From the NCBI RefSeq assembly GCF_009805595.3, contig NZ_VMQO03000001.1, positions 30,001 through 62,000 on the forward strand: a stretch of 32,000 nucleotides of DNA, in the 5' to 3' direction. Every line of letters begins with the position of its first letter. The first letter of the stretch is position 1. Shown one piece after another: positions 4,738 to 30,894 of the stretch. Below the pieces are notes generated by a model, which saw only the letters and a program-made list of their open reading frames with translations, ran no database searches and was not told the origin of the DNA. Source of the DNA: Candidatus Tremblayella phenacoccinincola. GTDB taxonomy: Bacteria > Pseudomonadota > Gammaproteobacteria > Burkholderiales > Burkholderiaceae. The translations under genes were made by a program, and so were the position numbers.

Positions 4738-5077
4738 AAGCCTGAGTCTTTAAATTCAATTCGCTGTTGAATAAAGAGTCCAAAGAATAAAAGCTCCTTA
4801 CATCAACCTTCATAATATGAACTATAAAAGAACTACAATTTACTACATGCCACTGCTTACTACTTTGTGTTACGAATGCTGAAGAACCATACAAACCTTT
4901 GAATAACCCATGTATTTCCTTAGCAACGCCTCTAATGTGAACACTCGATGTACCTTCAGTCACTATGGTATAAACATGATTCAACTTAAAGTCCGAGTAT
5001 ATTTTGGTGTTTACAGTTTTTAGTTTGTATGTTGTGTATACGATTTTTAATATAAGCTCTACATCACACATTCTCAC
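4721..5077 (-). CDS. rsfS: ribosomal silencing factor RsfS (YbeB/iojap family)
   Basis: 118-aa ORF. TIVTEGTSSVHIRGVAKEI and QWHVVNCSSFIVHIMKVDVRSFYSLDSLF align with E. coli RsfS (CTGTSSRHVMSIADHV and [29 protein letters not shown]). The SD-like GAGGTGA lies just upstream of the ATG. A C-terminal extension of about 15 aa overlaps the dnaE 3' end by 17 nt, with the two genes convergent. Confidence 0.8.
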   Translation of the reverse strand: MRMCDVELILKIVYTTYKLKTVNTKIYSDFKLNHVYTIVTEGTSSVHIRGVAKEIHGLFKGLYGSSAFVTQSSKQWHVVNCSSFIVHIMKVDVRSFYSLDSLFNSELNLKTQAFSRYI

Positions 5078-5373
5078 CTCAGGTTCTGTATTCTAAACCC
5101 AATACAAACAGTCTACATCGCTAGTTGTTTATTGTTTTGACTTAGCTTAAAACAGATATAGAGAAACAGGTTTAGTAAGTAATCATAACAGCAATCACAT
5201 AACGCTCGTTTAATAATATAAAGACAGCTGGTTCTCAACAAGATATATAGATAATATTAGTTATTTAGTTGGTAGTTTGGTTCTGTGGAACAGCTATATA
5301 GTTGTATAAGAAGTTATGGAGGTTAACTTATGGCTATTGGTTTATGATATGATGATGTTGCTGCTGAAATGCT

Positions 5374-6783
5374 ATGCTGTTCATATATAACACATTAACT
5401 AATTCTAAAGAGCTTTTTAGAACTACTAAACCTAACTTAGTAAATATATATATATGCGGAGTTACAACATATGATCTATGTCATTTAGGGCATGGACGTA
5501 CGTTTGTAGCTTTTGATATTATTATTAGATATTTACGTCTTTGTGGTTATAAGGTTAATTATATTCGGAATATTACTGATATTGATGATAAAGTTATATC
5601 TAAAGCATTTAAAACTGGAGTACAAAGTAAGAACTTAAGTAAAAGTATGATAACGGAAATGTATAAGGACTTTAAGATAGTTAATGCTTTGCAACCTAAC
5701 CATGAGCCTTGTGCTACTAAAACCATAAAACATATCATTGACTATGCTTTTATGTTAATTAAAAAGAAATATGCTTATCTCAATACCAATGGAGAAGTGA
5801 TATATTCAGTTAAAACTACTAACAGCTACGGTTTATTATCTCGACAGCCAATTAAATATCTTAATGTAAATAAGCTTAAAAACCTTAATAATAAGCGCAG
5901 CTATAATGACTTTGTTTTGTGGAAAAAGCCTAAACCTGGAGAACCAAGTTGGGTTTCACCTTGGGGTTTTGGACGGCCTGGTTGGCATATAGAATGTTCA
6001 GCTATTAGTCATAAATATTTAGGAGCTAACATTGAAATCCATGGTGGAGGTTTAGACTTAGTTTTTCCCCACCATGAGAATGAACTAGCCCAAGCTACTA
6101 GCGCTTTTGATGGTTCTTGTGTTAGAATATGGATGCATACTGGCATATTAGTATTAAATAATGAAAAGATGTCGAAAGCATTAAATAACTCAATTAAGCT
6201 TCGAGAAGTCCTTAAATACTATGATGTCGAAACTCTAAGGGTTTTATACCTAGCTAGCCATTATAGAAACCCATTAGATTTTAGTATTAAAAAGATAAAA
6301 GAATCATTTATTTCTCTAAAGCGTTTATATACTGCACTTAGAGGTACTAACTTTAGAATAAAAGCAGAACTTAAAGAACTTAAAGAAGATATGCTTTCTA
6401 GGTTTTTTAATGCTATGAATGATGACTTTAATACTCCAAAAGCTTTTTCAATATTATATTCTATTGCTAAAAGGATAAACTATTTTAAACATAGGAACTT
6501 AATATTAGCGAATAAACTAGCAGCTAAATTACGGGGTTTAGGTAATATCTTAGGTTTATTAAGCTCCGAGTCTATTGAGCATGTCTTTGAGGAACATGTT
6601 CAAGAAAAGATATTAAATAAAGCAAAGGTTAAGATAATTGAAATAGAAAAACTAATTAAGAAACGTAAGCTAGCTAGATGTAATAAACAATGGCTTTTGG
6701 CGGATAATATAAGAAATAAGCTATATGATAGAAACATAGCTCTTGAAGATGAAAAAGAAAAAACAATATGGAGGTTTAAATAG
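5374..6783 (+). CDS. cysS: cysteinyl-tRNA synthetase
   Basis: 469-aa ORF with the HIGH motif (CHLGHGRTF) and the KMSKS motif (KMSKAL). It also has WGFGRPGWHIECSA and HGGGLDLVFPHHENE. It is very close to E. coli CysS, including LKRLYTALRGT and the C-terminal TIWRFK. The gene is very AT-rich. Confidence 0.96.
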   Translation: MLFIYNTLTNSKELFRTTKPNLVNIYICGVTTYDLCHLGHGRTFVAFDIIIRYLRLCGYKVNYIRNITDIDDKVISKAFKTGVQSKNLSKSMITEMYKDFKIVNALQPNHEPCATKTIKHIIDYAFMLIKKKYAYLNTNGEVIYSVKTTNSYGLLSRQPIKYLNVNKLKNLNNKRSYNDFVLWKKPKPGEPSWVSPWGFGRPGWHIECSAISHKYLGANIEIHGGGLDLVFPHHENELAQATSAFDGSCVRIWMHTGILVLNNEKMSKALNNSIKLREVLKYYDVETLRVLYLASHYRNPLDFSIKKIKESFISLKRLYTALRGTNFRIKAELKELKEDMLSRFFNAMNDDFNTPKAFSILYSIAKRINYFKHRNLILANKLAAKLRGLGNILGLLSSESIEHVFEEHVQEKILNKAKVKIIEIEKLIKKRKLARCNKQWLLADNIRNKLYDRNIALEDEKEKTIWRFK

Positions 6784-6808
6784 GTTAGCTTAATAAAAGC
6801 CAATAAGT

Positions 6809-6882
6809 GCGCCCTTAGTTCAGTTGGACAGAACAACGGCCTTCTAAGCCGTAGATCACTGGTTCGAGCCCAGTAGGGCGTG
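6809..6882 (+). tRNA. tRNA-Arg (anticodon UCU)
   Basis: Hand-folded cloverleaf. Acceptor GCGCCCT/AGGGCGT, D arm GTTC-AGTTGGACA-GAAC, anticodon arm ACGGC-CTTCTAA-GCCGT, T arm ACTGG-TTCGAGC-CCAGT, discriminator G. CCA is not encoded. It resembles E. coli argU. Confidence 0.9.
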
Positions 6883-6919
6883 CTTTCTTATATTAAACCA
6901 TATAACCACTAAACACCTT

Positions 6920-7360
6920 ATGTATATAACCACTATAATAAATAATAATAAGATACCCTTTCAATATTATGTTGAGAAAAGACTTGAAGCCGGTATTTCA
7001 TTACAAGGGTGGGAAGTTAAGGCTCTTAGGTTTAAAAAGATAAGCATTAACAATAGCTATGTTTATATCAAGGAAAGTGAAGCATACATATTTGGTGCTA
7101 GCTTTCAGCCTTTATATTTTATATCATGTTCAGGCATAAACTATGAACCATTAAGAAACCGTAAGCTGCTTTTAAATAAAAAAGAGATTGTTCTTTTATA
7201 TGGCTCAGTATATAAACATAAGGGTTATTCTATAGTAGTTGAATCTTTATATTGGAAAGGCTCTTGGTGTAAAGCTAGTATAGTTTTAGTTAAAGGTAAA
7301 AAAGACTACGATAAAAGAAATGATTTAAAAAAGAATAGCTGTTTGTCTAATGCATACTAA
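6920..7360 (+). CDS. smpB: SsrA-binding protein SmpB
   Basis: 146-aa ORF. EAGISLQGWEVKALR, RNRKLLLNKKEI, GYSIVVESLYWKGSWCKASIVLVKGKKDYDKRNDLK is collinear with E. coli SmpB. Confidence 0.93.
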   Translation: MYITTIINNNKIPFQYYVEKRLEAGISLQGWEVKALRFKKISINNSYVYIKESEAYIFGASFQPLYFISCSGINYEPLRNRKLLLNKKEIVLLYGSVYKHKGYSIVVESLYWKGSWCKASIVLVKGKKDYDKRNDLKKNSCLSNAY

Positions 7361-7427
7361 CCTTTTCATATTCAGTTATTGGGAGGAATCTGAAGAGACA
7401 TGTGTTATATAGAATTGTCCGCCTATA

Positions 7428-7982
7428 TTAAAAGAAGTCCTCCCATATAGCTATAGCTTTTCCTATAAGTAACTTCCCTGGAAAAGCACCCCAAAAACGA
7501 CTATCATAGCTTCTAATTAAATAATCACCTATTACAAAATAGTTAAGACTTGGTAAACACCAAACGTATATATTATTACATATGTCTTTTTTAATATGAA
7601 TGTTTAATCTATTATGAATGCTTAAACTACTATAGATATAACTCTTTTGGTCTTTAAGCTTTTGTATATAACTATTTATTATTCCTTTATAGTTTATGAA
7701 TATCTTTTTAATATGCTTATTATATATTACTTTATCACCAGGTAACCCTAATATCCTTTTGATATAGCTAGAAGCTTTAAAAGGATATTTTACTACAACT
7801 ATAGTTCCTCGCTTCTTAATAAAACCATAAGAAAGCTTTTTAACTACAGCTAAACCTCCAGAGAATAATGTTGGAACCATTGACTTTGAGTTAATACAGC
7901 ATAGTTCAAATATAAATGCATTTACTGAATATAATAATATAATAACTATCATAGACCTTATTATGTTAAGCTTATTATTCAT
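7428..7982 (-). CDS. lepB: signal peptidase I (shortened)
   Basis: 184-aa ORF with an N-terminal TM segment. It carries the catalytic Ser box SKSMVPTL, the Lys box YIKRILGLPGDKV and the GDYLIRSYDSRFWG box. It is much shorter than the 324-aa E. coli LepB. Confidence 0.9.
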   Translation of the reverse strand: MNNKLNIIRSMIVIILLYSVNAFIFELCCINSKSMVPTLFSGGLAVVKKLSYGFIKKRGTIVVVKYPFKASSYIKRILGLPGDKVIYNKHIKKIFINYKGIINSYIQKLKDQKSYIYSSLSIHNRLNIHIKKDICNNIYVWCLPSLNYFVIGDYLIRSYDSRFWGAFPGKLLIGKAIAIWEDFF

Positions 7983-8060
7983 ATACTTCCTCTTAGATAC
8001 AACCCCAAATAGAATATGATTATCTGTTTAGTTAGGTTTAACAGCTCTTTGTCTTAACAG

Positions 8061-10571
8061 CTATTTTAAAGCTAATATGTTTATTATCTTATTAGGAATA
8101 TATATTATTTTATATGCTTTTTTAGTTTTAAAATACCTTAATGCCTTTTCATATAGGTATAGTTTATCTTTTATTAGAGCTTCTCCTATATTCATAGGAA
8201 CCTCAATAGAACCTCTTACTTTATTATTTATTTGTACTATTATTGATAAGCATATAGGCTCTATGGTTGTTTTGTTTAGATTAAACCAATATAGCTCTTC
8301 TATAGCTTTTCTGTTGTTTAGCTCCTTCCATAATATGGAACAAATATGAGGAACAAAAGGACTAATTACTTTTATAGTTAGGTTTAACAGCTCTTTGGAT
8401 AAAGAATAATCCAACTCTTTTATTTTAGGCATTTTAACTAACTTACTAACTATTTTCATAATAGAGGCTATCGAAGTATTAAATGAATGACGCTCTTTTA
8501 TATCTTTAACTATATTAATAATAGACTTATTAACCTCCTTGTATAATAACAACTGTTCTTTGTTTAGAGAATTAACATCAAAAGGCAAAACATATCTTAG
8601 TTCTACATGCTCATATACAATCTTCCATACTTTATTTAAAAACCGATATGAACCTTCTATTCCTGACTGCTTCCAAATAATATCTATGTTAGCAGGAGCA
8701 GCAAACATAATAAATAATCGTAAAGCATCAGCGCCATATATTTCTAATACTTTTCCTGGACATGTACCATTATTTTTAGACTTTGACATCTTATGAATAC
8801 CTGCATGTTTGACCTCATTACCATCTAAATCAAAAAGCTTAGTTAGCTTGTCTTTATTATTATATCTAGTAACTACGTTTAGTGGAGAAACCCATTTAAT
8901 GCTTTTATCAACATAGTAAAAAGCTTCCGCTAAAACCATCCCTTGACAAAAGAGTTTTCTTACTGGCTCTTTATAGCTAAACCCAACTAACCCAGCATCT
9001 CTTAATAGTTTATAATAAAGCCTAAAATATAATAAATGCATAATTGCATGCTCTATTCCACCTATATATTGATCAACAGGTAACCAATAGTTTGTTGCTT
9101 TTATATCTATCATGCTTTTTCTAAAGTCTGGGCAAACATAACGAATGTAATACCACGAAGACTCTAAAAAGGTATCAAAGGTATCAGGTTCACGATAAAC
9201 ATCTTTTCCTTTATATATTACTTTATACCATTTTACATTCTTTTTTATATTAGTTACTAACATATAGCTATTTACTAATAGGCTTTCATCCAATAATATA
9301 GGTAATTCTTTAGCTGCTACAGGAACTACCTTTTTAGGTTTTAATAGCATTGGCATAGGAACTCCCCAAATACGCTGTCTAGAAATACACCAGTCTTTTA
9401 AGCTATAGTTTATCTTTTGGTTACATTTATTAGTTTTAATTAACTTATTCATTATAGCTTCAGGCTTTTGAGGGTTACCATATGTTGATTTGTTTTCAAT
9501 ACATATTTCAGTTGGCAGTCTATGGTTTATAGCAAAGCTAAAATCTTCTATATATATAGAAGGAATACCTATACTAATACCTGTTCCATAGTCTTTTATT
9601 ATATGCTTAACTACCCAAACTGATAGCTTTATATTTGTTAATGGGTTTATAGCATAAAGATCTGTATTTAGTTCTTCTTGATAACTATGGGGTTCCCCTA
9701 GCTTAGTTTTTAAACAGCCTGTAATAAACCCTTTTACCTCTTTTACGTTCTTTTTAAGAGCTAATAAAGATAAGCAATGGTAAACTGATATATATATATA
9801 TGTAGCTTTTAACAAGAGTTCTGGGTTTATAGCATATATATTTAAACTATTATCTTTAGCTTCTATATTAAATACTATACCTATGCCTTTAGATTTACCT
9901 ATCCAGCTTCTTTGCATATCTTTTATGTTTATTGGCCAATAGGTTAAATAGGCTAGTTCTTTTAATAGGTCATCTGCATATGAAGTTATTTTAATAAACC
10001 ATTGCGAAAGCCTTTTAAAAGCTATAGAGTTATTACACCTCCAACAGCAACCATTAACAGCCTGTTCATTTGCTAATACAGTTTTATCAGTAGGACACCA
10101 ATTAACAACTGTTTTGCTTTTATATGCTAACTCCTTATTATATAGAAATACATATAGCCATTGCTCCCATATATAAAACTCTGGTTTGCATGTGATAAGT
10201 TCTCGAGACCAGTCAAAGCTAAAACCCATAGGCTTTAGCTGCTTTCTCATATACTTTATATTATTATATGTCCATTCAGAAGGGATACTTTTATTATTAA
10301 CTGCCGCACTTTCCGCAGGTAAACCAAAAGCGTCCCATCCAATCGGATTCAAAACAGATATTCCTTGCATACGTTGGTATCTAGCTATAGTGTCTCCTAT
10401 TGTATAGTTTCGTATATGACCCATATGAAGCTTACCAGAAGGATAAGGCAACATAGATAAACAATAATGCTTTTCTTTTTCAATAGACTCAGTAGCTTTG
10501 AATATCTGGCTTTTCCCCCAATATTCTTGAACATTAGCTTCTATTTCTTTATGGTAATATAGGACATCCAT
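8061..10571 (-). CDS. leuS: leucyl-tRNA synthetase
   Basis: 836-aa ORF with HIGH (PYPSGKLHMGHIRNY) and KMSKS (KMSKSKNN) motifs. The N-terminal 200 aa are almost collinear with E. coli LeuS: KEKHYCLSMLPYPSG, IARYQRMQG, NWCPTDKTVLANEQAVNGCCWRC, QWFIKITSYADDLL. Confidence 0.97.
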   Translation of the reverse strand: MDVLYYHKEIEANVQEYWGKSQIFKATESIEKEKHYCLSMLPYPSGKLHMGHIRNYTIGDTIARYQRMQGISVLNPIGWDAFGLPAESAAVNNKSIPSEWTYNNIKYMRKQLKPMGFSFDWSRELITCKPEFYIWEQWLYVFLYNKELAYKSKTVVNWCPTDKTVLANEQAVNGCCWRCNNSIAFKRLSQWFIKITSYADDLLKELAYLTYWPINIKDMQRSWIGKSKGIGIVFNIEAKDNSLNIYAINPELLLKATYIYISVYHCLSLLALKKNVKEVKGFITGCLKTKLGEPHSYQEELNTDLYAINPLTNIKLSVWVVKHIIKDYGTGISIGIPSIYIEDFSFAINHRLPTEICIENKSTYGNPQKPEAIMNKLIKTNKCNQKINYSLKDWCISRQRIWGVPMPMLLKPKKVVPVAAKELPILLDESLLVNSYMLVTNIKKNVKWYKVIYKGKDVYREPDTFDTFLESSWYYIRYVCPDFRKSMIDIKATNYWLPVDQYIGGIEHAIMHLLYFRLYYKLLRDAGLVGFSYKEPVRKLFCQGMVLAEAFYYVDKSIKWVSPLNVVTRYNNKDKLTKLFDLDGNEVKHAGIHKMSKSKNNGTCPGKVLEIYGADALRLFIMFAAPANIDIIWKQSGIEGSYRFLNKVWKIVYEHVELRYVLPFDVNSLNKEQLLLYKEVNKSIINIVKDIKERHSFNTSIASIMKIVSKLVKMPKIKELDYSLSKELLNLTIKVISPFVPHICSILWKELNNRKAIEELYWFNLNKTTIEPICLSIIVQINNKVRGSIEVPMNIGEALIKDKLYLYEKALRYFKTKKAYKIIYIPNKIINILALK

Positions 10572-10936: not shown

Positions 10937-10980
10937 ACTACAGCTAACTTCCCTTCCTAGCTAGGAGCTCTTGGTTTATT

Positions 10981-11183
10981 AGGAGAAGGTAGGAGAGGAG
11001 AGAGTTAACAGCTATAGCTATTAAAGAGCTTCTCTCTCCCCTCTCTTATATATACTTCTACTTCTAACTAACCTTCTCCTCTTCTCTCCTTTCCCTTTCC
11101 TTATTCTTATCCACCTTTCTCCTCTCCTTTCTCCCCCCAGGCTTCCCCCTCAACACATCCAAACATTCCTCTCCTTTCATACC
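10981..11183. repeat. GA-rich arm, short central palindrome, then G-free CT-rich low-complexity spacer
   Basis: 10981-11004 is C-free purine-rich (AGGAGAAGGTAGGAGAGGAGAGAG). The centre contains AGCTATAGCT. 11029-11139 (111 nt) and 11142-11183 contain no G. GGAGAGAG (10997-11004) can pair with CTCTCTCC (11033-11040). The spacer contains CTTCTACTTCTA and TTCCTTATTCTTATCC, which recur in the large satellite at 17408-17963. Confidence 0.8.
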
Positions 11184-11224
11184 GCTAACTATAGTTCCAA
11201 TAGCTACAGCAGCTATAATAGATT

Positions 11225-15030: not shown

Positions 15031-16137
15031 TTATTCCACACTGTTGACTACGGTTATGAAGGCATCAAACAGATATTCTATATCTTTGGGACCTGCACAT
15101 GCTTCTGGATGTCCTTGAAAGCTTAACGTTAAATACGTATAGGTCTCCAACCCTTGGACTGATTCATCGAATAAAGATATATGTGATATCCTGAAAGCAT
15201 CGTTTAGAGAGGCTGGTTCAATGGTAAAGCTATGGTTCTGAGCTGTGGTTACTACAGCCCCGCTGTTTAGATCTTTAACCGGATGGTTGGTGCCATGATG
15301 TCCAAACCTCAAGCGTTTAGTTTTTGCACCCAAGGAAAGAGAAGTAACTTGGTGCCCGAAACAGATACCTAACATAGGAATCCTAGAATGTATTAGCTTT
15401 TTAACGTTTGAGATTATATCTGGGTTTATGCTAGGACTACCAGGTCCATTAGATAAAACTATTCCATCCACAGCTAGGTTCAAAATGTCCTTACAGTTGA
15501 CGTAAGCAGATACAACATAAACTATACAGCTTCTATCCATAAGACATCGCAAAATGCTGAACTTTAACCCGAAGTTTAAAACTATGACTTTATGTTTATG
15601 TTCTAAGCAGTTTCTTTTGGAATGCCAAACAACAGAATTACCATTGAATGTTTCTTTCGCTAAGTCTCTCGTAGATATGTCTATTGAAACTCTAGCAACA
15701 TCAACAGCTATCTGATTAGCGTTCCTACTGGTTATAGCGCATCCTTTGATAACACCTCGAGTTCTTAAGAGTTGAGTTAACAACCTTGTGTTGACTCCAG
15801 ACAAAGCTACCATTCCTGTTTTCCTAAGCTTTTTGTATAAGGAGCTCATTATTCTGACACCAGATTGAAAAGCAGAAAACGAACGTACAATGATTCCTGA
15901 AGCGTAAGCTCTTTGAGACTCAACATCAGTATTATTTATACCTGAGTTTCCAATGTGCGGGAAGGTGAATACAATTAGTTGTCCAAGGTAACTTGGATCG
16001 GTAATAATTTCTTGGTAGCCAGTTATAGAAGTATTAAATATTAGTTCACCAGTGATGATGCCTTTTGCTCCAACTGATCTACCTTGCAATACTGCACCAT
16101 CCTCTAATCCCAAGACTGCATCCAATACGAACCTCAT
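15031..16137 (-). CDS. carA: carbamoyl-phosphate synthase small (glutaminase) subunit
   Basis: 368-aa ORF with GELIFNTSITGYQEIITDPSY, the catalytic Cys box MLGICFGHQ and HHGTNHPV. It lies 3 nt upstream of carB. Confidence 0.96.
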   Translation of the reverse strand: MRFVLDAVLGLEDGAVLQGRSVGAKGIITGELIFNTSITGYQEIITDPSYLGQLIVFTFPHIGNSGINNTDVESQRAYASGIIVRSFSAFQSGVRIMSSLYKKLRKTGMVALSGVNTRLLTQLLRTRGVIKGCAITSRNANQIAVDVARVSIDISTRDLAKETFNGNSVVWHSKRNCLEHKHKVIVLNFGLKFSILRCLMDRSCIVYVVSAYVNCKDILNLAVDGIVLSNGPGSPSINPDIISNVKKLIHSRIPMLGICFGHQVTSLSLGAKTKRLRFGHHGTNHPVKDLNSGAVVTTAQNHSFTIEPASLNDAFRISHISLFDESVQGLETYTYLTLSFQGHPEACAGPKDIEYLFDAFITVVNSVE

Positions 16138-16202
16138 TTAGTTATAGGGTTTCTGTTAATAAAAAGATAAAAGATAATAAACCATCCATACTGGAGGCAA
16201 CT

Positions 16203-16885
16203 ATGATTTCAAAAGTTAGGTATGTTATATTAGATTCTGAGACTACAGGTTTAAATGTGCTGTCCGATAGAATTGTAGAGTTAGGATGCGTAGAGGTAAT
16301 GGAAGGTTCAGTCACTGGAAACTATTTTCATAGTTACATTAACCCAGGCTATTCAAATACTCCTGAAGCTTTTAAAATACACGGCTTGAAAGATTCCTTT
16401 CTTAGAAAACAACCTAGGTTTAAGGAGGTAGCTGATAGGTTTTTGCTTTTATATACGGAGCAGTAATAGTAGCCCACAATGCTTCATTCGATGTTAACTT
16501 CATAGACAAAGAGTTAGTCAGTATAGGCTATCTGCCAACTGCTCGGTTCATCTTAGGAATAATAGATACTCTCACAATAGCTAAGATATTATTACCTAAT
16601 AAGCGTAGTTCTTTAGACTATTTGTGTGATAGGTTCAAGATTCCAAGAGCCAAAAGAATAAAGCATGGAGCTCTGATAGATGCAAAGCTTTTAGCAGATG
16701 TCTTTATAGCATTGAATAAACTCAAAGCAGCAACAGCAGGGTTTAGAGATGGGAGTGTTCCTGTTGATCGTACGTCTCTTTGTAAATGTTTAGCTCTTAT
16801 AGAGGTTAGTAACAGTGAACTGCAGTTACATCAGAACATCCTTAACGAAATAAATAGACTTACGGTTGGTTGTTGCATTTGGTAG
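16203..16885 (+). pseudogene. dnaQ: DNA polymerase III epsilon (proofreading exonuclease), interrupted by one frameshift
   Basis: The ATG at 16203 is preceded by GGAGG (16190-16194). Frame 3 reads MISKVRYVILDSETTG…FKEVADRF and hits a TAA at 16464-16466. The protein continues in the -1 frame from about 16445 (AFIYGAVIVAHNASFD…HGALIDAKLLADVF…) to the TAG at 16883-16885. One extra T in the T5 run at 16440-16444 would restore a roughly 227-aa DnaQ. Exo I (DSETTG), Exo II (HNASFD) and Exo III (HGALIDAKLLAD) are all intact. The 16065 start in the ORF track overlaps carA and is spurious. Confidence 0.85.
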
Positions 16886-16960
16886 TTGGAACCAAAAGCA
16901 TATAGCTAACCAATAGCTGAAGGCATCTAAAAGGATTAGGTTTAGGTTAGGTAGGTTCTC

Positions 16961-17293
16961 GAGAGGATGGTGTGTTGTTTGTGTGTGTGGTTGGGAAGAT
17001 AAAGGTAGGAAGGGATGAGAGGAGGAAGAGTGTGTGTGAAGAAGAAGGTTGAAGAAGAAGGTTGAAGAAGAAAGGAGAAAGGGGGGAGATCTGTGAAAGG
17101 AAGGTAGGAAGGGGAAGGAGTTGCTTTCTAAACTCTTTTGGGAGATGGTTGGGGGGAAAGTCTGGGGGGAAGGGGGGTTAGTGGAAGTATTTCTTTAGTG
17201 GTGGTTTAGGTATTGGTAGTTCAGGTGAATACTTTCATTGGGGTTGGAGTTGGAGTTGGAGTTGGAGTTGAGTTGAGTTGGGTTGGAAGAGAT
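16961..17293. repeat. C-depleted GA/GT-rich low-complexity arm with tandem repeats
   Basis: 16961-17090 (130 nt) has no C, and I count only 10 C in 16961-17293. GAAGAAGAAGGTT occurs about 2.8 times at 17038-17075. (TTGGAG)x4 followed by (TTGAG)x2 lies at 17244-17277. There are several G6-G7 runs (17081-86, 17151-56, 17164-69, 17172-77). Confidence 0.9.
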
Positions 17294-17407
17294 CCCCTTT
17301 TTCTATGCTAGAACAGGCTGACAGTAGGAAAGAACATCTCAGCCTGACAAGACTACTGTGCACCCGATGGAGAAGCTTGGGGTGGAAGGCAGTCGAAGAA
17401 GCTACTG

Positions 17408-17963
17408 TACTCTCTCTCACACACACACACACACACATATATAAAACCCCACACATATATAAAACCCCTCTCTCCTACCCCTCCTCCTACCTCCTCCTTC
17501 TCTTCCCTTCCCTTTCCCTATACCCTTTCCCTATACCCTTTCCCTATACCCTTTCCCTTTCACTATTACTATTACTATTACTATTACTATTACTATCACC
17601 ATCACACATTTCCCCCCACATCCTCCCCACACACACACCTCTCTATATACACCTACATCTACACTACAATACACCTACACTACACCTACAATACACCTAC
17701 ACTACATCTACATCTACTTCTACTTCTACTTCTACTTCTACTTCTATACCTCTACTTCTCCTCTCTAACCCCCATGAAACCCCACACAACCCACACACCC
17801 CCTTTTCCCTTCCTATTCTTATTCCCCTCCCCCCTTTTCCCTTCTCAATACCCTTCCTATACCACCTTACCTTACCTTATTCCTATCCTTTTCCCTTCTC
17901 AATACCTTTCCTAATACCACCCCTCCCCTTTCCTAATACCACCCCTCCTACCTTCCTCTCTAT
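17408..17963. repeat. G-free C/T/A satellite block (micro- and minisatellite array)
   Basis: There is no G in 17408-17775 (368 nt) or in 17777-17963 (187 nt), so 556 nt carry a single G. The block contains these repeats. (CA)10 at 17418-17437. 18-bp ACACATATATAAAACCCC x2 at 17433-17468. 13-bp CCCTTTCCCTATA x3.8 at 17510-17558. (ACTATT)x5.8 at 17562-17596. (CTACTT)x5.5 at 17714-17746. A 20-nt exact repeat CCTTTTCCCTTCTCAATACC at 17833-17852 and 17887-17906. 20-nt TTTCCTAATACCACCCCTCC x2 at 17907-17926 and 17929-17948. Confidence 0.95.
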
Positions 17964-18002
17964 GGACAAACCATATAAACTACCAACACATAATTCCTTG
18001 TA

Positions 18003-18091
18003 GTCCAGATGGAGAAGCTGGTTTCCTCGGGGTTTCCCAAAGCTCAGCTTTCAGTATTTTAAACATATCGATTCAAATCCGACTCTGGATA
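18003..18091 (+). other. degenerate tRNA-like element (possible tRNA pseudogene)
   Basis: A 7-bp acceptor-type stem GTCCAGA (18003-18009) pairs with TCTGGAT (18084-18090), followed by A. It is directly preceded by a T-arm with the canonical loop TTCAAAT (18072-18078), but that stem is only 3 bp (ATCGA/CCGAC with two A:C mismatches). There is a D-arm-like GAG-AAGCTGGTTTC-CTC. The best anticodon loop is TTCCCAA (18034-18040, CCC) with an imperfect stem and about 21 nt of extra sequence. No clean cloverleaf forms. Confidence 0.3.
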
Positions 18092-18138
18092 ACAAAACAA
18101 AAAGGAACATAGCTTATCTCCAACTGGAGGCTTGAACT

Positions 18139-18225
18139 ATGATAAAGATAAACAAGTTCATTGTAGTTCTGTTGGTAATTCTCTGTGGACATCTGTTTGG
18201 TAAAGCATCTAGCAACACCAGCTAA
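18139..18225 (+). CDS. hypothetical 28-aa signal-peptide-like small ORF (may be a gene remnant)
   Basis: The ATG at 18139 has GGAGG 8 nt upstream (18126-18130). The product MIKINKFIVVLLVILCGHLFGKASSNTS has a basic N-terminus followed by a hydrophobic core. There is no homology evidence. Confidence 0.15.
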   Translation: MIKINKFIVVLLVILCGHLFGKASSNTS

Positions 18226-18310
18226 CATTGGCTTTTAGTATAGCCTCCCTGCCTCAACACATCCTCCCCCCCCCACTAGCTTACCTTAACTCTGTTGAGA
18301 CAGACTGATG

Positions 18311-18601
18311 TGGAGATGGTGGGAATCGAACCCACGTCCAAAAGTAAAGCTCGGTTAGTTCTACATGCTTAATCTTACACTAGCTTTTCCAATACACTAC
18401 GCATATATTAAAGAAGAAACTTTAGAGTCTGATTCTTTGTTCTAATGTGTAACAACTGTCATTAGATGTTAACTTAAACCTCTTCTTGTTTGCATTTGCG
18501 TGTTTCTTCTTTTTCTTAAGGAACACTTTGATCCCCCGAAGTTGGAACCATACGCATGCACTAACCTTTCTTTAGCTTTTGTCGAAGCCTTTGACATCCC
18601 C
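18311..18601 (-). ncRNA. ssrA: tmRNA (SsrA), short one-piece form
   Basis: On the minus strand the 5' end reads GGGGATGTCAAAGGCTTCGAC (canonical form GGGGNUG…UUCGAC). The 3' end reads TGGACGTGGGTTCGATTCCCACCATCTCCA (canonical form GGACGNGGGTTCGANTCCCNCC…TCCA). The acceptor GGGGATG/CATCTCC has the G3:U70 alanine identity pair and discriminator A. CCA is not encoded. Length is about 291 nt. The tag ORF is not certain; the only frame opening with a GCA resume-type codon is 18499-18422 (ANANKKRFKLTSNDSCYTLEQRIRL*). Confidence 0.85.
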
Positions 18602-18744
18602 CAGACTTACCTTACTACAGCAACTCAACTTCTATTAACTTCTTAACTCTATAGGATTAGTACATATGAAACCTAAAATGAACCAGCTTTTCCAACAACA
18701 GCAACAACCGTTAACCCAATGGATCAAACAACCACAACAGATAT

Positions 18745-19548
18745 ATGAACAACAAAATACTAATATGGATAAGTAACCTAAGCTGTAAGGTGTTGTTACT
18801 TGTTACTTCAATAGCAGTTTTAGTGTTCCAGGCTTTTACATTGGATTCTTCAGAAGCATGCACTATCGACAACGAGAGGTTTGATATGGTTCAATATAAC
18901 TACGAATACTCCAAAGCTTTTCCAACCACAACCACAAGCAATACAGAAGCTAGGACCAACCAATTAACAACCGTTGCTCCAAAAGAACATAGTAATGAGA
19001 ATGATTGGATAAACTCTGTTGTAGACTCAGTCATCGGACCCAGTGAAACAGATCAGCTAATATCCACTGACAAACGTGCTGCTATCCGAGAGCTGTTGGA
19101 TAACTTGGACTTACCGAAAGCTATATATTCAATAATGCACAACATCATTACCCAAATCAAACAGCTAATCCCAATAGTTGAGTCTGACTTCTTATCTGAA
19201 AAGCAAGTAAGCTTCACTCAAAGGGACAGACTCATGCAAACACTGCAAAAGTATTGTGAGAAAGATATATGTAACAAATCAATAGAATCCTTAAAGACTC
19301 CAGACTTCTGGAACAATGCAGTTAGTGCACAAAGTTCTGCCTTCTCCAAATATTACACCATTGAAGAAATAAAAGACCTGACCACATTTTACAAAAGCAG
19401 CGTAGGTAGAAAATACCTAGCCGTACAGCCTCAAGTTGGTCATGATATAATGGAAGAGCTGCTGAGAAAATATGCTTCGGAAGTATTAAGGAATGTTCGA
19501 ACCGAAGTTGAAAAAGAAGTGAGGAACTTATTAAACACCATCGAATAA
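18745..19548 (+). CDS. hypothetical secreted or membrane-anchored protein with a DUF2059-like C-terminal domain
   Basis: 267-aa ORF with an N-terminal hydrophobic segment (VLLLVTSIAVLVFQAF). The C-terminal FSKYYTIEEIKDLTTFYKSSVGRKYLAVQPQV fits the remembered DUF2059 pattern (Y..FT.eEl..l..FY.Sp.G.K). Its composition and coding density match the neighbouring genes. Confidence 0.6.
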   Translation: MNNKILIWISNLSCKVLLLVTSIAVLVFQAFTLDSSEACTIDNERFDMVQYNYEYSKAFPTTTTSNTEARTNQLTTVAPKEHSNENDWINSVVDSVIGPSETDQLISTDKRAAIRELLDNLDLPKAIYSIMHNIITQIKQLIPIVESDFLSEKQVSFTQRDRLMQTLQKYCEKDICNKSIESLKTPDFWNNAVSAQSSAFSKYYTIEEIKDLTTFYKSSVGRKYLAVQPQVGHDIMEELLRKYASEVLRNVRTEVEKEVRNLLNTIE

Positions 19549-25356: not shown

Positions 25357-25440
25357 TTAGTATATATTTGTTAGTTCTTTGTAGTTGAATACGGCTGCTA
25401 GGAAAGGTTCCATTGAGTTTCCGTTGAGACGGACGGTGTG

Positions 25441-25557
25441 TATAACATTCTATATATCCATATATCATTCCATATATATCCATATAACATCATTCATCTT
25501 CCCTTCCATCATACCACCATACTTATACTTCCATACAACCACACCCATACTTCAACA
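25441..25557. repeat. G-free A/T/C low-complexity spacer
   Basis: 117 nt without a single G. It is built from CCATATAT/TCCATA-type motifs followed by CATCTTCCCTTCCATCATACCACCATAC. The two ORF-track entries here (25385-25582 and 25438-25629) are translations of this tract. Confidence 0.85.
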
Positions 25558-25726
25558 GCCTCTGTGTCTATGGTTAGTTTAAACACACTATTCACTATTG
25601 AAGCAGCTCCTTTCTTAGAATCAGAATAGTCAAGCATTTGGGGGTTTCTATAGTGGTTTGTGGTTCATTTGCATTTTAACTGAAATGTAGTTCATAGTGG
25701 TCCTTATATATATACACATAGAGACT

Positions 25727-26830: not shown

Positions 26831-26895
26831 CTCTCACAACTCATATCAAAGAATGTTAAGGTCACTCTAACTAACTTTTAAATAGAGGGGGCAGC

Positions 26896-27468
26896 ATAAA
26901 CATAACCATAAACATAACCATAAGCATAACTTCAACTAAACGAATTAATGGTGAAGCCTCAAACCCCAAAGTAAGAATAATTGGACTAAACAAAGAACTA
27001 TTAGGAACTATGAATTTAGAAGAAGCCTTAAGCATATCCAAAAGCTTAAAAACAGATCTTATTGAGACATCACCTAACAGCTTTCCTCCAGCTTGCTGCC
27101 TAATGGATCACGGTAAGTTCAAATATAGATCTTCAAAGAAAAAACAAAAAGATAAGGCTAAGCAAAAGACCATGCAAACAAAAGAAGTTAAACTTACTCC
27201 TAATATTGGCAAGAAGGACTACAGAATTAAAATGCGTCAGTTAGTCAGTTTCTTAGAGAAAGGAAACAAAGTTAAGGTCATTGTTAAATTCAAAGGACGA
27301 GAGATATGCTTTAAAAACATGGGCTTTGAGATTCTCAAAGAAGTCCAAACCGATCTTTCAGGCCTCTGTACAGTTGAACACTCTAAAAGAAAGGAAGACA
27401 AATGCATATCAATGTTCCTAACAACATTAAAACAAAGAAAGCCTAAACAACAAAAGTGGAATGCATAA
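26896..27468 (+). CDS. infC: translation initiation factor IF-3, non-canonical (ATA/ATT) start
   Basis: Homology to the IF-3 N-terminus (KRINGEASNPKVRIIGLNKELLGTMNLEEAL versus E. coli [31 protein letters not shown]) lies upstream of the first ATG (27010). There is no ATG, GTG or TTG in frame between the TAA at 26872-26874 and 27010. The ATA at 26896 follows the SD-like GAGGGGG (26885-26891) by 4 nt, and an ATT at 26944 is an alternative. Non-canonical start codons are the known autoregulatory feature of infC. Confidence 0.88.
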   Translation: MNITINITISITSTKRINGEASNPKVRIIGLNKELLGTMNLEEALSISKSLKTDLIETSPNSFPPACCLMDHGKFKYRSSKKKQKDKAKQKTMQTKEVKLTPNIGKKDYRIKMRQLVSFLEKGNKVKVIVKFKGREICFKNMGFEILKEVQTDLSGLCTVEHSKRKEDKCISMFLTTLKQRKPKQQKWNA

Positions 27469-27661: not shown

Positions 27662-28032
27662 TGGAGGCTACTTTGACCAGAGTAAAAAGAGGGGTAACTT
27701 CCCGTAGTAGACACAAGAGACTTGTTAGGTTAGCTAAAGGATTTAGGAGTAGGAGAAAGAATGTATATCGAGTTGCTAAACAGGCAGTAATGAAGTCTCA
27801 GCAATATTCATACATTGATCGCAAAAAGAGGAAAAGAAGCTTTAGGTCTTTGTGGATTATGCATATCAATATAGCAAGCCGTAAATATGGTATAAACTAC
27901 AGTACGCTAATGAAGCAACTAAGACTCAACGGAATTGAAGTTAACAGAAAACATCTTTCAGGTCTTATCGAATACGACAGTAGCATATTTAAAGGGATAG
28001 TTGGAAGCGTTTTTAACTCAGTTAGGCTTTAG
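27661..28032 (+). CDS. rplT: 50S ribosomal protein L20
   Basis: TRVKRGVTSRSRHKRLVRLAKGFRSRRKNVYRVAKQAVMKSQQYSYIDRKKRKRSFRSLWI is collinear with L20. The ATG at 27661 overlaps the rpmI stop (TAATG). The GTG at 27652 from the ORF track is an alternative start. Confidence 0.93.
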   Translation: MEATLTRVKRGVTSRSRHKRLVRLAKGFRSRRKNVYRVAKQAVMKSQQYSYIDRKKRKRSFRSLWIMHINIASRKYGINYSTLMKQLRLNGIEVNRKHLSGLIEYDSSIFKGIVGSVFNSVRL

Positions 28033-28060
28033 AATCCTTTTAAGCGAGAGCTAGTAGTAT

Positions 28061-28477
28061 TTGTATTATATATATTGCTTAGCATTCCAAATAATACCTG
28101 GTATAACAACAGCAATAGGTTCTACCATAGGAATACCATTAACTCATAGAAACTACTCTAATAATATAGCTTTTACAACAGGGTCTATATCCTATAAAAA
28201 CAAACCTAACTGGAATCTAGAACTAAATAAAAAGCAAACAATAATAATGTATATGTATGCAAGTAATATAACTAAGCTAAAAGAAAAGCTATTAAAAAGT
28301 AGCTTCTCAAATAAAACTCCAATAGCAATAATTACATCAAGCACTAATAAAAACCAAAAGATAATAATAAGCAACATAAAAAGCATAGAAAGCTTATCAA
28401 ATAATAATACAACACCCTCTATATTGATAATAGGAAATATAATAAAGCTATATAGAGATATTACTACATTCAATTAA
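28061..28477 (+). pseudogene. 5'-truncated remnant of uroporphyrinogen-III C-methyltransferase (CobA / CysG C-terminal domain)
   Basis: IIPGITTAIGSTIGIPLTHRNYSNNIAFTTGS…KQTIIMYM…TPIAIITSSTNKNQKII…TPSILIIGNIIKL aligns with the last roughly 135 aa of E. coli CysG ([34 protein letters not shown]…KQTLVFYM…MPVALVENGTSVKQRVV…SPALIIVGRVVAL). The N-terminal half of the methyltransferase domain, including the GAGPGD motif, is absent. TAG TAG stops lie at 28051-28056 and rplT ends at 28032. Confidence 0.75.
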
Positions 28478-28560
28478 TAAGAGCATAAGTCCCTTCTAAA
28501 CCTATAACAATCCCCCCCCCCTTCTCTAACAGCTAACACCTAAAAAGGAAAAGAGCTAGA

Positions 28561-28665
28561 ATGTCTTTATGGGACGGCCGCTTCAAAGAAAAGCTAAACA
28601 TAATGTTTGAATACTTTAACAACTCCTTAAAAACCGATTATAGGTTCATAACGAAATATAGCTAA
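28561..28665 (+). pseudogene. 34-codon 5' stub of argininosuccinate lyase
   Basis: MSLWDGRFKEKLNIMFEYFNNSLKTDYRFITKYS* aligns with the E. coli ArgH N-terminus [33 protein letters not shown]. The rest of the gene is missing, since tRNA-Trp starts 32 nt downstream. Confidence 0.5.
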
Positions 28666-28696
28666 CCATAAGTCTATTGCATTATAATTAGGAAAG

Positions 28697-28770
28697 CAGG
28701 GATAGAGAGTCTCGAACTCCCAACAGCTGGTTTTGGAGACCAGTACTCTGCCAAGTTGAGTTATATCCCT
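28697..28770 (-). tRNA. tRNA-Trp (anticodon CCA)
   Basis: Minus-strand sequence AGGGATA-TA-ACTC-AACTTGGCA-GAGT-A-CTGGT-CTCCAAA-ACCAG-CTGTT-GGGAG-TTCGAGA-CTCTC-TATCCCT-G. It is very similar to E. coli trpT. Confidence 0.92.
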
Positions 28771-28772
28771 TG

Positions 28773-28846
28773 CGGTGCGGGCGAGTTTCGAACTCGCCAC
28801 CTTCGGCGTGACAAACCGATATTCTAACCAACTGAACTACCGCACC
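28773..28846 (-). tRNA. tRNA-Asp (anticodon GUC)
   Basis: Minus-strand sequence GGTGCGG-TA-GTTC-AGTTGGTTA-GAAT-A-TCGGT-TTGTCAC-GCCGA-AGGTG-GCGAG-TTCGAAA-CTCGC-CCGCACC-G. It lies 2 nt upstream of tRNA-Trp on the same strand. Confidence 0.92.
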
Positions 28847-29122
28847 TATAGACTTAAGCAGTTTCTTACTCTAGTCAAAGGACTAGTTTATAAACCGAAT
28901 TAAGCAGAATCTATTATGTGGTTCTAACTGGTATTATATTGTTGTTAAGAAGAATGCTTTTTCTAGAAGGCTGGTTGGATTCTAGAATGGTTAGCAGGAC
29001 AAGCTATTACCAGTTCTAGGAAAGGCTACTCCTCCTACCAACCACCCACATATACAATACTACCCCCACATAGCTAAACCTCTTGTAGTTCCTTAAAGAA
29101 AAACTAATCTAATAAACCCATA

Positions 29123-30541
29123 ATGCCTATGAAAATAATAACTCGCTTTGCCCCAAGTCCTACTGGATATGTTCACATTGGGGGAATAAGAACTGCCTTA
29201 TATTCCTGGCTATATACTCGTAGTAAAAAAGGAAAGCTTATTTTAAGAATAGAAGATACTGACTCTTCACGTTCAAATTCCAAATACATTGACTCAATAG
29301 CTGCTGTAATGAAATGGTTAAGTTTAGATTGGGATGAAGGTCCATACATACAAACAAAAAGACTAAACAGATATAATGAATATGTCTCTAAATTGATAAA
29401 TGCTAACTTAGCTTACAAATGCTACTGTACAAAAGAAAGACTAGAAAGTCTACGTAAGTCTCAATTAGCTCAAGGAATAAAACCAAAATATGATGGCCAT
29501 TGTCGTAATAAATATGTATACTATAATGACTCAAAAGAATATGTTATAAGGTTTAAAAACCCAATAAATGGAACTACCTCTTTTTATGATAATATACGCG
29601 GTTCTATTTCTTTTAGAAACGAAGAGTTAGATGATCTTATAATAAAACGAACTAATGGCCTACCTACATATAACCTATGCGTGGTAGTAGATGACTTAGA
29701 CATGGAGATAACACACATAGTTAGAGGAGAAGAACATATTAACAATACGCCCCGTCAAATAAACATACTAAAAGCCCTTAACTCACCGATTCCAATATAT
29801 ACGCATGTGCCAATAATATTAGGTAATTCTGGGAAAAAGCTATCTAAAAGGGAACAAGCTACAAACGTATTAGAATACAAACATAATGGGTTTTTACCAG
29901 AAGCAATAATAAATTATATTGTTAAGCTAGGATGGACATACGGCAATAAAGAACTAATTAACATTAACGAACTAAAAGCTATATTCAATACTAAGTCCAT
30001 TAGAAAGTCTGCAAGTAAGTTTGACTATGAAAAGCTACTATGGGTAAATCAACAATATATTAAAAACACTTCAGATAAGTATATTATCGAATATCTATAT
30101 GTAAGCTTGAACAAAAGCAAATACAAACCTAATATTAAATATGGTTCTATACTAAAAAGCCTAATAAGACTATATAAAACTAGATGTAATACATTAAACC
30201 TAATAACAGAAAGCTTCTACCAATTCTATATAGATTCTAGTAGTTCTAATGAAACCTATATAAACTATATAGAAGCTGCTTCTGTTTTAGATATCGTAGA
30301 AGCCATATATAAAGAAATATCAATAACAAAAAGCTGGTCCATAAATATGATAACTGAAATAATACAAAAGATATCAATAAGCCTAAATATAGCTGTCTGT
30401 AATATAGCTATGCTATTAAGAATAGGCTTATTAGGAAAAGCTGTATCACCAGGAATAACTCAAGTCATAAACATATTTAATAAAGAGTCTCTACTAAAAC
30501 GTATAAAAAAGGTAATTACAATGCTTAAATATAACTATTGA
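29123..30541 (+). CDS. gltX: glutamyl-tRNA synthetase
   Basis: 472-aa ORF. (MP)[74 protein letters not shown] and KLSKR (KMSKS-type) are near-collinear with E. coli GltX. The true start may be the second ATG at 29129. Confidence 0.96.
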   Translation: [472 protein letters not shown]

Positions 30542-30712
30542 AACAGTTGTTAGCTATTAACTTCTTTCAGACATAATAGGGGTTTCAACTAGAACTATAA
30601 CATAATTACATACTATAACAAAATAGATTAGAAACAGCTAGTCAAAAGCAGGTAACAGATAAACCCCAAACGCCAATACATATGAAAGTGTTAATATACA
30701 TATGCTTCTCTC

Positions 30713-30747
30713 TTCTCTATTCTCTATTCTCTATTCTCTATTCTCTT
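30713..30747. repeat. 7-bp tandem repeat (TTCTCTA)x4 plus a partial unit, inside a G-free tract
   Basis: There are four perfect TTCTCTA units at 30713-30740 and a degenerate fifth. 30705-30749 contains no G. The repeat lies in the convergent gltX/ileS spacer. Confidence 0.85.
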
Positions 30748-30894
30748 TAGCAGATGTCAAACCAGTAACAATGTTAAATAGAGCTCGAGCTCCTACTACA
30801 TGGTACCCCAATAGAATCCTAGAAAGGTTTCGCTGGAGACGCTAGCCTATCAAGAGAGACCATTTATTCCCCTCCCCCCACAATATATTAACTA

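Follow-up and report, generated by a model that had tools for sequence, protein, structure and literature searches.

Introduction

The repeat-inflated intergenic DNA of Candidatus Portiera aleyrodidarum, the endosymbiont of whiteflies, is the closest precedent for the locus described here. In Portiera of Bemisia and Singhiella, according to those parts of the sources that bear on the matter, expanded intergenic DNA rich in short tandem repeats is found together with lost or decayed replication genes, dnaQ among them (Sloan and Moran, 2013, PMC3673631, for Bemisia tabaci; Santos-Garcia et al., 2020, PMC7821994, for Singhiella simplex). The present locus is the spacer between dnaQ and the transfer-messenger RNA (tmRNA) gene ssrA, located at positions 16886-18307 of a 32-kb stretch of DNA (hereafter the window). 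The genome is that of a reduced obligate insect endosymbiont, Candidatus Tremblaya phenacola: CarA, the DUF2059 protein and PheA of the window each show 100% identity to proteins of this species. PSOL, a strain of the cotton mealybug, is the name used for the lineage of the window; the window strain itself is only probably PSOL, to which its GC content and chimeric set of genes correspond. The PSOL genome is characterized by a size of 221 kb, a GC content of 34.8% and seven contigs with repeat ends, which could not be joined through their repetitive flanks (PMC11014885).

On the + strand the spacer passes from a G-rich arm almost free of C, through a core of normal composition, to a C-rich arm with a single G. 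On balance, it is probably filler DNA that codes for nothing, located at a rearranged junction and lengthened by recurrent slippage during replication; most likely it lacks a sequence-specific function.

Composition and repeats of the spacer

Annotation covers about 86% of the window. The dnaQ-ssrA spacer, 1422 nt in length, is by far the longest gap. A reading made from the sequence alone (the sequence-only reading) had described a gene-free stretch of 1.1 kb here. The stretch is gene-free as stated; its extent is greater, continuing to 18307.

The left arm (coordinates of all features in Table 1) contains 145 G, 88 A, 90 T and 10 C in 333 nt (43.5% G). Its C-free run is 130 nt in length (16961-17090). 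The core is of normal composition, with 26 C, 23 T, 33 A and 32 G. The right arm contains 244 C, 179 T, 132 A and one G, at 17776, in 556 nt (44% C), and its G-free runs are 368 and 187 nt in length. The next-longest G-free runs in the 32-kb window measure 117 and 111 nt and are intergenic too; C-free runs elsewhere in the window are all shorter than 45 nt. The counts of the sequence-only reading (10 C and a 130-nt C-free run on the left, a single G on the right, a normal core) are exact in every case.

Tandem Repeats Finder reports about 25 rows at 17037-17948, with periods of 2-26, which bears out the earlier description of the arms as built of many different tandem units. Exact tandem copies occupy 47% of the right arm and 25% of the left, compared with 1-2% in shuffled sequences and 0% in two coding controls. 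Repeat enrichment in the window is confined to spacers: further arrays are found at 25.4, 26.9 and 30.7 kb, including (TTCTCTA)x6 at 30706-30746, and genes hold weak two-copy rows only. The GC content of the arms is 44-46%, that of four-fold sites 0.21-0.25. The arms are thus far from mutational equilibrium, as is expected for new duplicates of GC-rich seeds. Pure pyrimidine runs of up to 30 nt occur in the right arm, and two clusters of C runs match a quadruplex motif on the - strand. A strict quadruplex motif was not found on the + strand of the left arm.

The arms had been described as compositional mirrors that are not inverted repeats at the sequence level, and alignment agrees. The local alignment of the left arm with the reverse complement of the right scores 44, at the level of shuffles (42.6 +/- 4.5). 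A degenerate inverted repeat is rejected: a reversed-order control scores 51, k-mer tests give no signal, and the matches are short and of low complexity only, though seemingly collinear.

The spacer interior contains no protein family match, no terminator and no excess of promoter-like sites. No Rfam match was obtained for 16850-18320 at E values up to 10, and no intrinsic terminator is predicted across 16000-18900. An open reading frame (ORF) of 241 amino acids at 17278-18003 has a low-complexity translation, no protein family match and no exact-protein record elsewhere; the sister strain described below lacks the greater part of it. Since G-free DNA allows only TAA as a stop codon, this ORF is an artefact of composition.

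Orthologous spacers in relatives

Four relatives were obtained via exact-protein look-ups: PPER, a sister strain, a third lineage and the outgroup PAVE. A search of a plasmid collection gave no match, and a scan of GTDB genomes returned only relatives of ≤44% identity.

The sister strain (Logan run SRR13503347) is 98.4% identical in the flanks, with about 0.035 synonymous substitutions per synonymous site (dS; range 0.02-0.08). Positions 1-32 of its contig L088 correspond to window 17379-17410 (29/32 identical), and positions 58-110 to window 17956-18008 (49/53). Between them, 25 nt (CACCCCCTCCCCTCCCCCCACTTCT) stand in place of the 545 nt of window 17411-17955, a difference of about 520 nt. 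As these 25 nt are unique sequence, L088 carries a true allele and not a collapsed assembly.

The PPER spacer (GCA_002682985) was joined from contigs MKGN01000017 (L081) and MKGN01000008 (L087), which share an exact overlap of 220 nt. It is 504 nt in length, versus 1422 nt in the window. In order, it comprises about 230 nt of G-rich, C-poor DNA, a flip at a 25-nt block, about 110 nt of C-rich, G-poor DNA, a counterpart of window 18139-18200, and ssrA. Its arms cannot be aligned to those of the window, and only short blocks align. That the two contigs had been left unjoined hints at a branch of the assembly graph in the spacer, from a dispersed repeat or an alternative arrangement. In the third lineage (SRR24008595, CarA 83% identical) contigs break on either side of the spacer.

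PAVE possesses an intact dnaQ of 239 amino acids, followed by 419 nt of ordinary composition with tRNA genes and then by ahpC. The neighbourhood of dnaQ has therefore changed, from tRNA genes and ahpC in PAVE to ssrA in PSOL and PPER, and the dnaQ-ssrA junction and its arms are derived in the PSOL-PPER clade.

Tandem arrays number one in 21 kb of PAVE, three loci in 10 kb of PPER and about 25 rows in the dnaQ-ssrA spacer of the window alone. The view of the spacer as a slippage hotspot, one of those offered by the sequence-only reading, is supported by the wide variation in ortholog length (545 nt versus 25 nt in the sister strain and about 110 nt in PPER). The same reading held that a lack of length polymorphism would leave the region inert junk; polymorphism is found and favours instability. 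It had also proposed the comparison of orthologous spacers, which reveals an interior that changes fast. The sole piece of the interior alignable between PSOL and PPER is the 25-nt block at 17369-17393.

Downstream of dnaQ in PAVE (CP003982, L089, about 8840-9142, - strand), an apparent class II tRNA is interrupted by some 250 nt of inserted sequence, for which Rfam reports a weak match to a group I intron (18 bits, E 0.034). At that site ARAGORN reports the neighbouring tRNA-Leu(tag) and nothing else.

Age of the arms

Polarised substitutions were counted in 12.6 kb of flanking DNA. There, 22-23% of changes from non-G bases make G and 25-26% of changes from non-C bases make C. In the right-arm arrays, departures from the unit consensus number only about 10, and no such substitution yields G. 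A right arm as old as the PSOL-PPER split would, by estimate, have gained several G. The few substitutions between copies, together with the absence of the arm from the sister strain, mark the right arm as recent. The left arm is older, as indicated by its 10 accumulated C and its C-poor counterpart in PPER.

Similar tracts in other spacers

A small GA-then-CT layout had been reported near 10981-11183. It is real, and is located at 10971-11183. The G-free CT arm of this spacer is missing in PPER, where the spacer is 158 nt in length and C-poor throughout. At the yggX/aroC spacer, window 25359-25655 (about 290 nt, which holds the G-free repeat tract) has no counterpart in PPER. The sister strain has at this spacer (L088 7440-7670) wholly different G-free arrays, which begin at the same base position as those of the window.

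An array (CATAAC)n lies upstream of infC at the same place in PSOL (26895-26930, 6 copies) and PPER (L087 8794-8824, about 5 copies). It is shared with PPER, whereas the other arrays are lineage-specific.

State of dnaQ

In dnaQ there is a -1 frameshift, located at the T4 run 16447-16450: the stop of frame A is at 16464-16466, and frame B continues to 16885. One added T would restore ...DRFLLFIYGAVIVAHNA..., colinear with PAVE. The frameshift is common to four lineages whose dS reaches about 0.4: PSOL, the sister strain, PPER and the third lineage (contigs including L082 and L084). The Exo I, Exo II and Exo III exonuclease motifs are all intact. The ratio of nonsynonymous to synonymous substitution rates (dN/dS) is 0.26-0.33 in the N-terminal half and 0.37-0.46 in the C-terminal half, similar to carA, pheA and rlmE. 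Neutral evolution of the N-terminal half is ruled out by its ratio. Judged from the gene sequences, expression of dnaQ probably continues, through recoding or in the form of two pieces, and the pattern suggests programmed recoding or a split protein and not a dead gene.

PAVE combines an intact dnaQ with few repeats, and PPER the frameshift with few repeats. As PPER has the same dnaQ state without a burst of repeats, loss of dnaQ or of proofreading alone cannot explain the instability of the PSOL lineage. The gene is arguably the more interesting lead, since it bears on whether unstable endosymbionts truly lose proofreading.

Conserved and decayed elements

The 25-nt block at the flip has no further copies in the window and none in JGI metagenomes. 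Folding of the core is unremarkable on both strands (z-scores -1.0 to -2.1), and the core of PPER gives no Rfam match; the RNA test is based on two sequences only, too few for covariation. The 8-bp hairpin CAGGCTGA/TCAGCCTG that the sequence-only reading placed in the core is present and does not exceed chance: perfect 8-bp hairpins number 7 in the window and 16 on average in shuffles. Origin of the core as a relic of the tRNA downstream of dnaQ in PAVE is rejected, with alignment at chance and no Rfam tRNA signal in the cores of PSOL or PPER.

A 15-nt match (CC[C/A]GATGGAGAAGCT) joins the core to the tRNA-like element beyond the right arm; its score is 25, versus 13.8 +/- 2.2 in shuffles, and 0/500 shuffles reach it. 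The right-hand copy of GATGGAGAAGCT is missing in the sister strain. It looks like a short templated copy of the core patch, made by template switch or gene conversion in the window lineage.

The tRNA-like element itself is decayed in the window, where neither ARAGORN nor Rfam calls a tRNA at 18003-18093. In the sister strain, ARAGORN identifies the ortholog (L088 105-193) as tRNA Gly-TCC, 89 nt in length, and Rfam gives it 34 bits (threshold 29). The two copies differ at about 10 of 89 positions (counted from the alignment), versus about 2% in the flanks. No counterpart is found in PPER.

Counterparts of the block at 18139-18225 are L087 253-317 and L085 26-104, about 91% identical across lineages. 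The short ORF of the block is probably not protein-coding, since five of the six differences from PPER change the amino acid and four lie at codon position 2. It is probably a conserved non-coding element beside the 3' end of ssrA. The tract that follows, 18226-18307, shows 10-nt and 11-nt indels relative to the sister strain (18.28 kb) and is absent in PPER and L085.

Table 1. Coordinates of the dnaQ-ssrA spacer, its flanking genes and related tracts in the window.
Feature	Position	Strand	Characteristics
dnaQ (DNA polymerase III epsilon)	16203-16885	+	left flank; both halves matched by NCBIfam dnaQ_proteo
Left arm	16961-17293	+	G-rich, C-poor; arrays (TGAAGAAGAAGGT)x2.8 at 17037-17072 and (TTGGAG)x8.8 at 17238-17287
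Core	17294-17407	+	normal complexity; includes hairpin 17314-17321/17339-17346
Direct repeat GATGGAGAAGCT	17366-17377 and 18008-18019	+	pair flanks the G-free arm
Conserved 25-nt block GGAGAAGCTTGGGGTGGAAGGCAGT	17369-17393	+	23/25 identical between PSOL and PPER; part present in sister L088
Right arm	17408-17963	+	chain of about 15 different tandem arrays; G-free, lineage-specific, young
tRNA-like element, decayed	18003-18093	+	sister ortholog L088 105-193 recognised as tRNA
Conserved block	18139-18225	+	reads as 28-codon hydrophobic ORF MIKINKFIVVLLVILCGHLFGKASSNTS (MIKINKFIVVLLVILCGHLFGK...); 91% identical to PPER over 65 nt
C-rich indel-prone tract	18226-18307	+	between the conserved block 18139-18225 and the 3' end of ssrA
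ssrA (tmRNA gene)	18308-18601	-	right flank, convergent with dnaQ; ARAGORN and Rfam RF00023, 95.8 bits
Small GA-then-CT layout	10971-11183	+	convergent tRNA-Met/rlmE spacer; GA arm 10971-11008, G-free CT arm 11029-11183
G-free repeat tract	25441-25557	+	yggX/aroC spacer

Gene neighbourhood and GC content

The ORFs near the spacer encode RlmE, CarB, CarA, the split DnaQ, a DUF2059 protein, PheA and AroA. Genes lie mostly on the - strand to the left of the spacer and mostly on the + strand to the right. Window GC is 25-31% across cysS, smpB, lepB and leuS (4500-10500), 27-35% across the greater part of the stretch with gltX and ileS (28000-32000) and 36-42% elsewhere. These blocks fit the published mosaic of gammaproteobacterial and betaproteobacterial segments. 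The dnaQ-ssrA spacer sits within a block of higher GC and not at a block boundary.

The ORF at 28061-28477 matches only the C-terminal third of siroheme synthase/uroporphyrinogen-III methyltransferase (CysG), and is probably a fragment of the cysG gene. The fragment also occurs in PPER (PF00590 ORF, L087 9896-10297).

Discussion

Under the favoured explanation, serial tandem duplication of short motifs would lengthen the spacer. Each duplication would copy the composition of its seed, so that a short C-rich, G-poor seed may grow into a long G-free tract; such seeds are present in the sister strain and in PPER. The resulting tract would be too young for point mutation to have restored G. The two arms would be separate entities of different age, the left older and the right recent, and the flip would consist of two low-complexity tracts juxtaposed around a slowly evolving core, not of one symmetric element. 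Weak fidelity of replication and repair in the clade is probably what permits such growth. Slippage inflation is the main cause in this account, which does not cover the origin of the left-G/right-C polarity in the common ancestor.

Several observations weigh against slippage as the whole explanation. The G-rich-then-C-rich layout is kept at the same block in PSOL and PPER (dS about 0.3) despite turnover of the arms, and lasting polarity is not what one would expect of a purely random process. A second convergent spacer (10939-11224) shows this polarity as well. The absence of G among the array substitutions (0/10 versus 22% expected) has P of about 0.08 and does not differ significantly from inheritance of the seed composition; strand-specific mutational bias is also compatible with it. 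The dnaQ gene is not plainly dead, both halves being under purifying selection, and PPER has the same frameshift yet few arrays. The interior 17411-17955 is not confirmed by independent reads.

If the spacer is slippage-inflated filler, the timescale is very short, with about 520 nt gained or lost at dS of about 0.035. Such tracts account for the breaks at spacers in the PSOL and PPER assemblies and in all short-read contigs. Strains can readily be typed by them, and the dnaQ-ssrA spacer is a good locus for the measurement of indel dynamics and heteroplasmy. Its base-excluding composition of mirror polarity offers a concrete approach to strand-specific mutation or slippage in a genome whose repair is reduced.

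A footprint of convergent transcription is a doubtful alternative, though not a negligible one. Read-through from dnaQ and from the highly expressed ssrA would expose the non-template strand, possibly in R-loops; deamination (C-to-T and A-to-G) would make the exposed strand G-rich and C-free, and the transcripts would meet at the core. The G-rich strand is indeed the sense strand of the gene reading into each arm, no intrinsic terminator is predicted between the two genes, and the layout is conserved in PPER. The polarity is also seen at the tRNA-Met/rlmE spacer, on the ileS side of 30542-30894 and in the ssrA leader (G-free 18621-18653). Against this, the sense-strand skew at four-fold sites is -0.16 for + strand genes and +0.09 for - strand genes, with no sense-strand excess of G. 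Sense-strand 3' flanks are C-rich for gltX (-0.20), the cysG fragment (-0.33) and aroC (-0.29). The tRNA-Met/rlmE spacer of PPER is C-poor up to the end of rlmE, a G-free tract (29026-29072) lies immediately upstream of a + strand gene, and the right arm is too young for slow deamination. G-richness of the sense strand downstream of genes is not a general rule: it holds for rlmE, ssrA and ileS and fails for gltX, aroC, infC and the cysG fragment.

It is unlikely that the spacer is a selected structural element of DNA or RNA, whose triplex-, quadruplex-, i-motif- or R-loop-prone arms act as a terminator, an insulator or a site of replication pause or start. Non-B DNA, also suggested by the sequence-only reading, is compatible with the sequence. 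A selected element would accord with the conservation, in PSOL and PPER, of the layout and of a 25-nt block at the flip, with the GC content of the arms (44-46% versus 21-25% at neutral sites), with the 30-nt pyrimidine runs and the two clusters of C runs that match a quadruplex motif on the - strand, and with the lack of canonical terminators. Against it stands an arm length of 25-545 nt between near-identical strains, and the sister strain can do without the arm. Neither arm is conserved in sequence, the core folds unremarkably, the left arm has no strict + strand quadruplex motif, and the outgroup PAVE has an ordinary spacer with tRNA genes. Slightly less probable is a functional collision zone, in which G-rich transcripts prone to R-loops or quadruplexes would stop the polymerases converging from dnaQ and ssrA, or would prime or stall replication. 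The composition of the arms would there be kept by selection or by self-reinforcing mutation while their sequences turn over.

Little weight is given to an assembly artefact or within-host heteroplasmy, by which the 556-nt arm would be a long-read mis-assembly or one of several length variants. No independent contig covers the interior 17411-17955, short-read contigs of three lineages all break at the dnaQ-ssrA spacer, and unresolved repetitive contig ends are reported for PSOL (PMC11014885). Both junctions and the C-rich character are nevertheless confirmed by the independent assembly of L088. The arrays are clean and show none of the indel noise that marks raw long reads. Other spacers hold comparable G-free arrays, as does the sister strain, and the sequence of the short allele is unique to it.

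Eroded remains of genes once located downstream of dnaQ, for example ahpC and tRNA genes as in PAVE, are a very unlikely source of the spacer. The junction is derived relative to PAVE, and a tRNA-like relic persists at 18003-18093. The tandem arrays, in contrast, are newly made sequence, and the core resembles the tRNA-like element or the PAVE tRNA no more than chance, save for the one 15-nt patch. A tblastn search of the spacer with AhpC of PAVE gives chance hits only (E above 1), and the left arm as an eroded ahpC is rejected on the same grounds.

At a replication terminus the + strand is expected to pass from G-rich to C-rich. A terminus, or another switch of fork direction, at the core, with the arms as extreme local leading/lagging skew, was among the earlier suggestions and, judged from the 32 kb of the window, is hardly credible: the polarity of the arms and the gene strands (mostly - to the left, mostly + to the right) match, but the + strand GC skew at four-fold sites does not change sign (-0.10 +/- 0.05 left, -0.18 +/- 0.05 right, negative for genes of both strands, with the same picture in PPER), cumulative skew within the window keeps falling beyond the spacer, the extreme skew stops at gene borders, the sister strain has almost none of the right arm, divergent gene orientation would suit an origin, whose skew polarity is opposite, and the second G-then-C flip at 10939-11224 would place two termini only 6 kb apart, which makes no sense.

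Comparison with known systems

The spacer shares with a terminus-type switch of GC skew the polarity on one strand, G-rich then C-rich. Terminus skew is weak, replichore-wide and present at neutral codon sites; the skew here is extreme, limited to 1.1 kb and absent from flanking four-fold sites.

Immunoglobulin switch regions and 3' pause elements have a G-rich, repetitive, R-loop-forming non-template strand, and vertebrate mitochondrial DNA shows strand asymmetry driven by deamination. Common to these systems and the spacer are tandem repeats and a would-be displaced strand enriched in G and depleted in C. The arms differ in being young and dispensable in the sister strain, and are known here from sequence alone.

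Candidatus Tremblaya princeps, of the same genus, also possesses unusually long non-coding DNA, with recombination between repeats, according to the portions of PMC3673631 and PMC7821994 that deal with it. Strain PCVAL differs in having 0 tandem repeats, an intact dnaQ and GC-rich spacers that resemble its genes (Table 1 of PMC7821994). Base-excluding arrays of the present kind are not reported for T. princeps in the same portions.

Portiera, as far as the relevant parts of the two accounts describe it, differs in a 7-bp spike of unit length, where the units here are heterogeneous and range over 2-26 nt. Near-total exclusion of one base on one strand and a flip from G-rich to C-rich are features of the present spacer and not of Portiera as described there. 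The host genome here is that of a betaproteobacterial and gammaproteobacterial chimera from mealybugs, and its dnaQ is frameshifted yet under purifying selection, with the frameshift in four lineages and the motifs intact. The likenesses, within the same parts of the accounts, are a tiny-genome obligate insect endosymbiont, lineage-specific inflation of spacers by short repeats, rapid turnover of indels, rearranged gene order, repeats that break short-read assemblies and a possible link to a damaged dnaQ; in S. simplex the dnaQ pseudogene lies in an expanded, rearranged region (PMC7821994). Several features expected of a Portiera-type spacer are found at the dnaQ-ssrA locus: lengthening by gain of sequence, enrichment of repeats in intergenic DNA, indels in repeats between close strains, and rearrangement. 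Runaway growth of repeat-rich spacers, earlier documented mainly in the Portiera of whiteflies, thus occurs also in the chimeric T. phenacola of Phenacoccus mealybugs.

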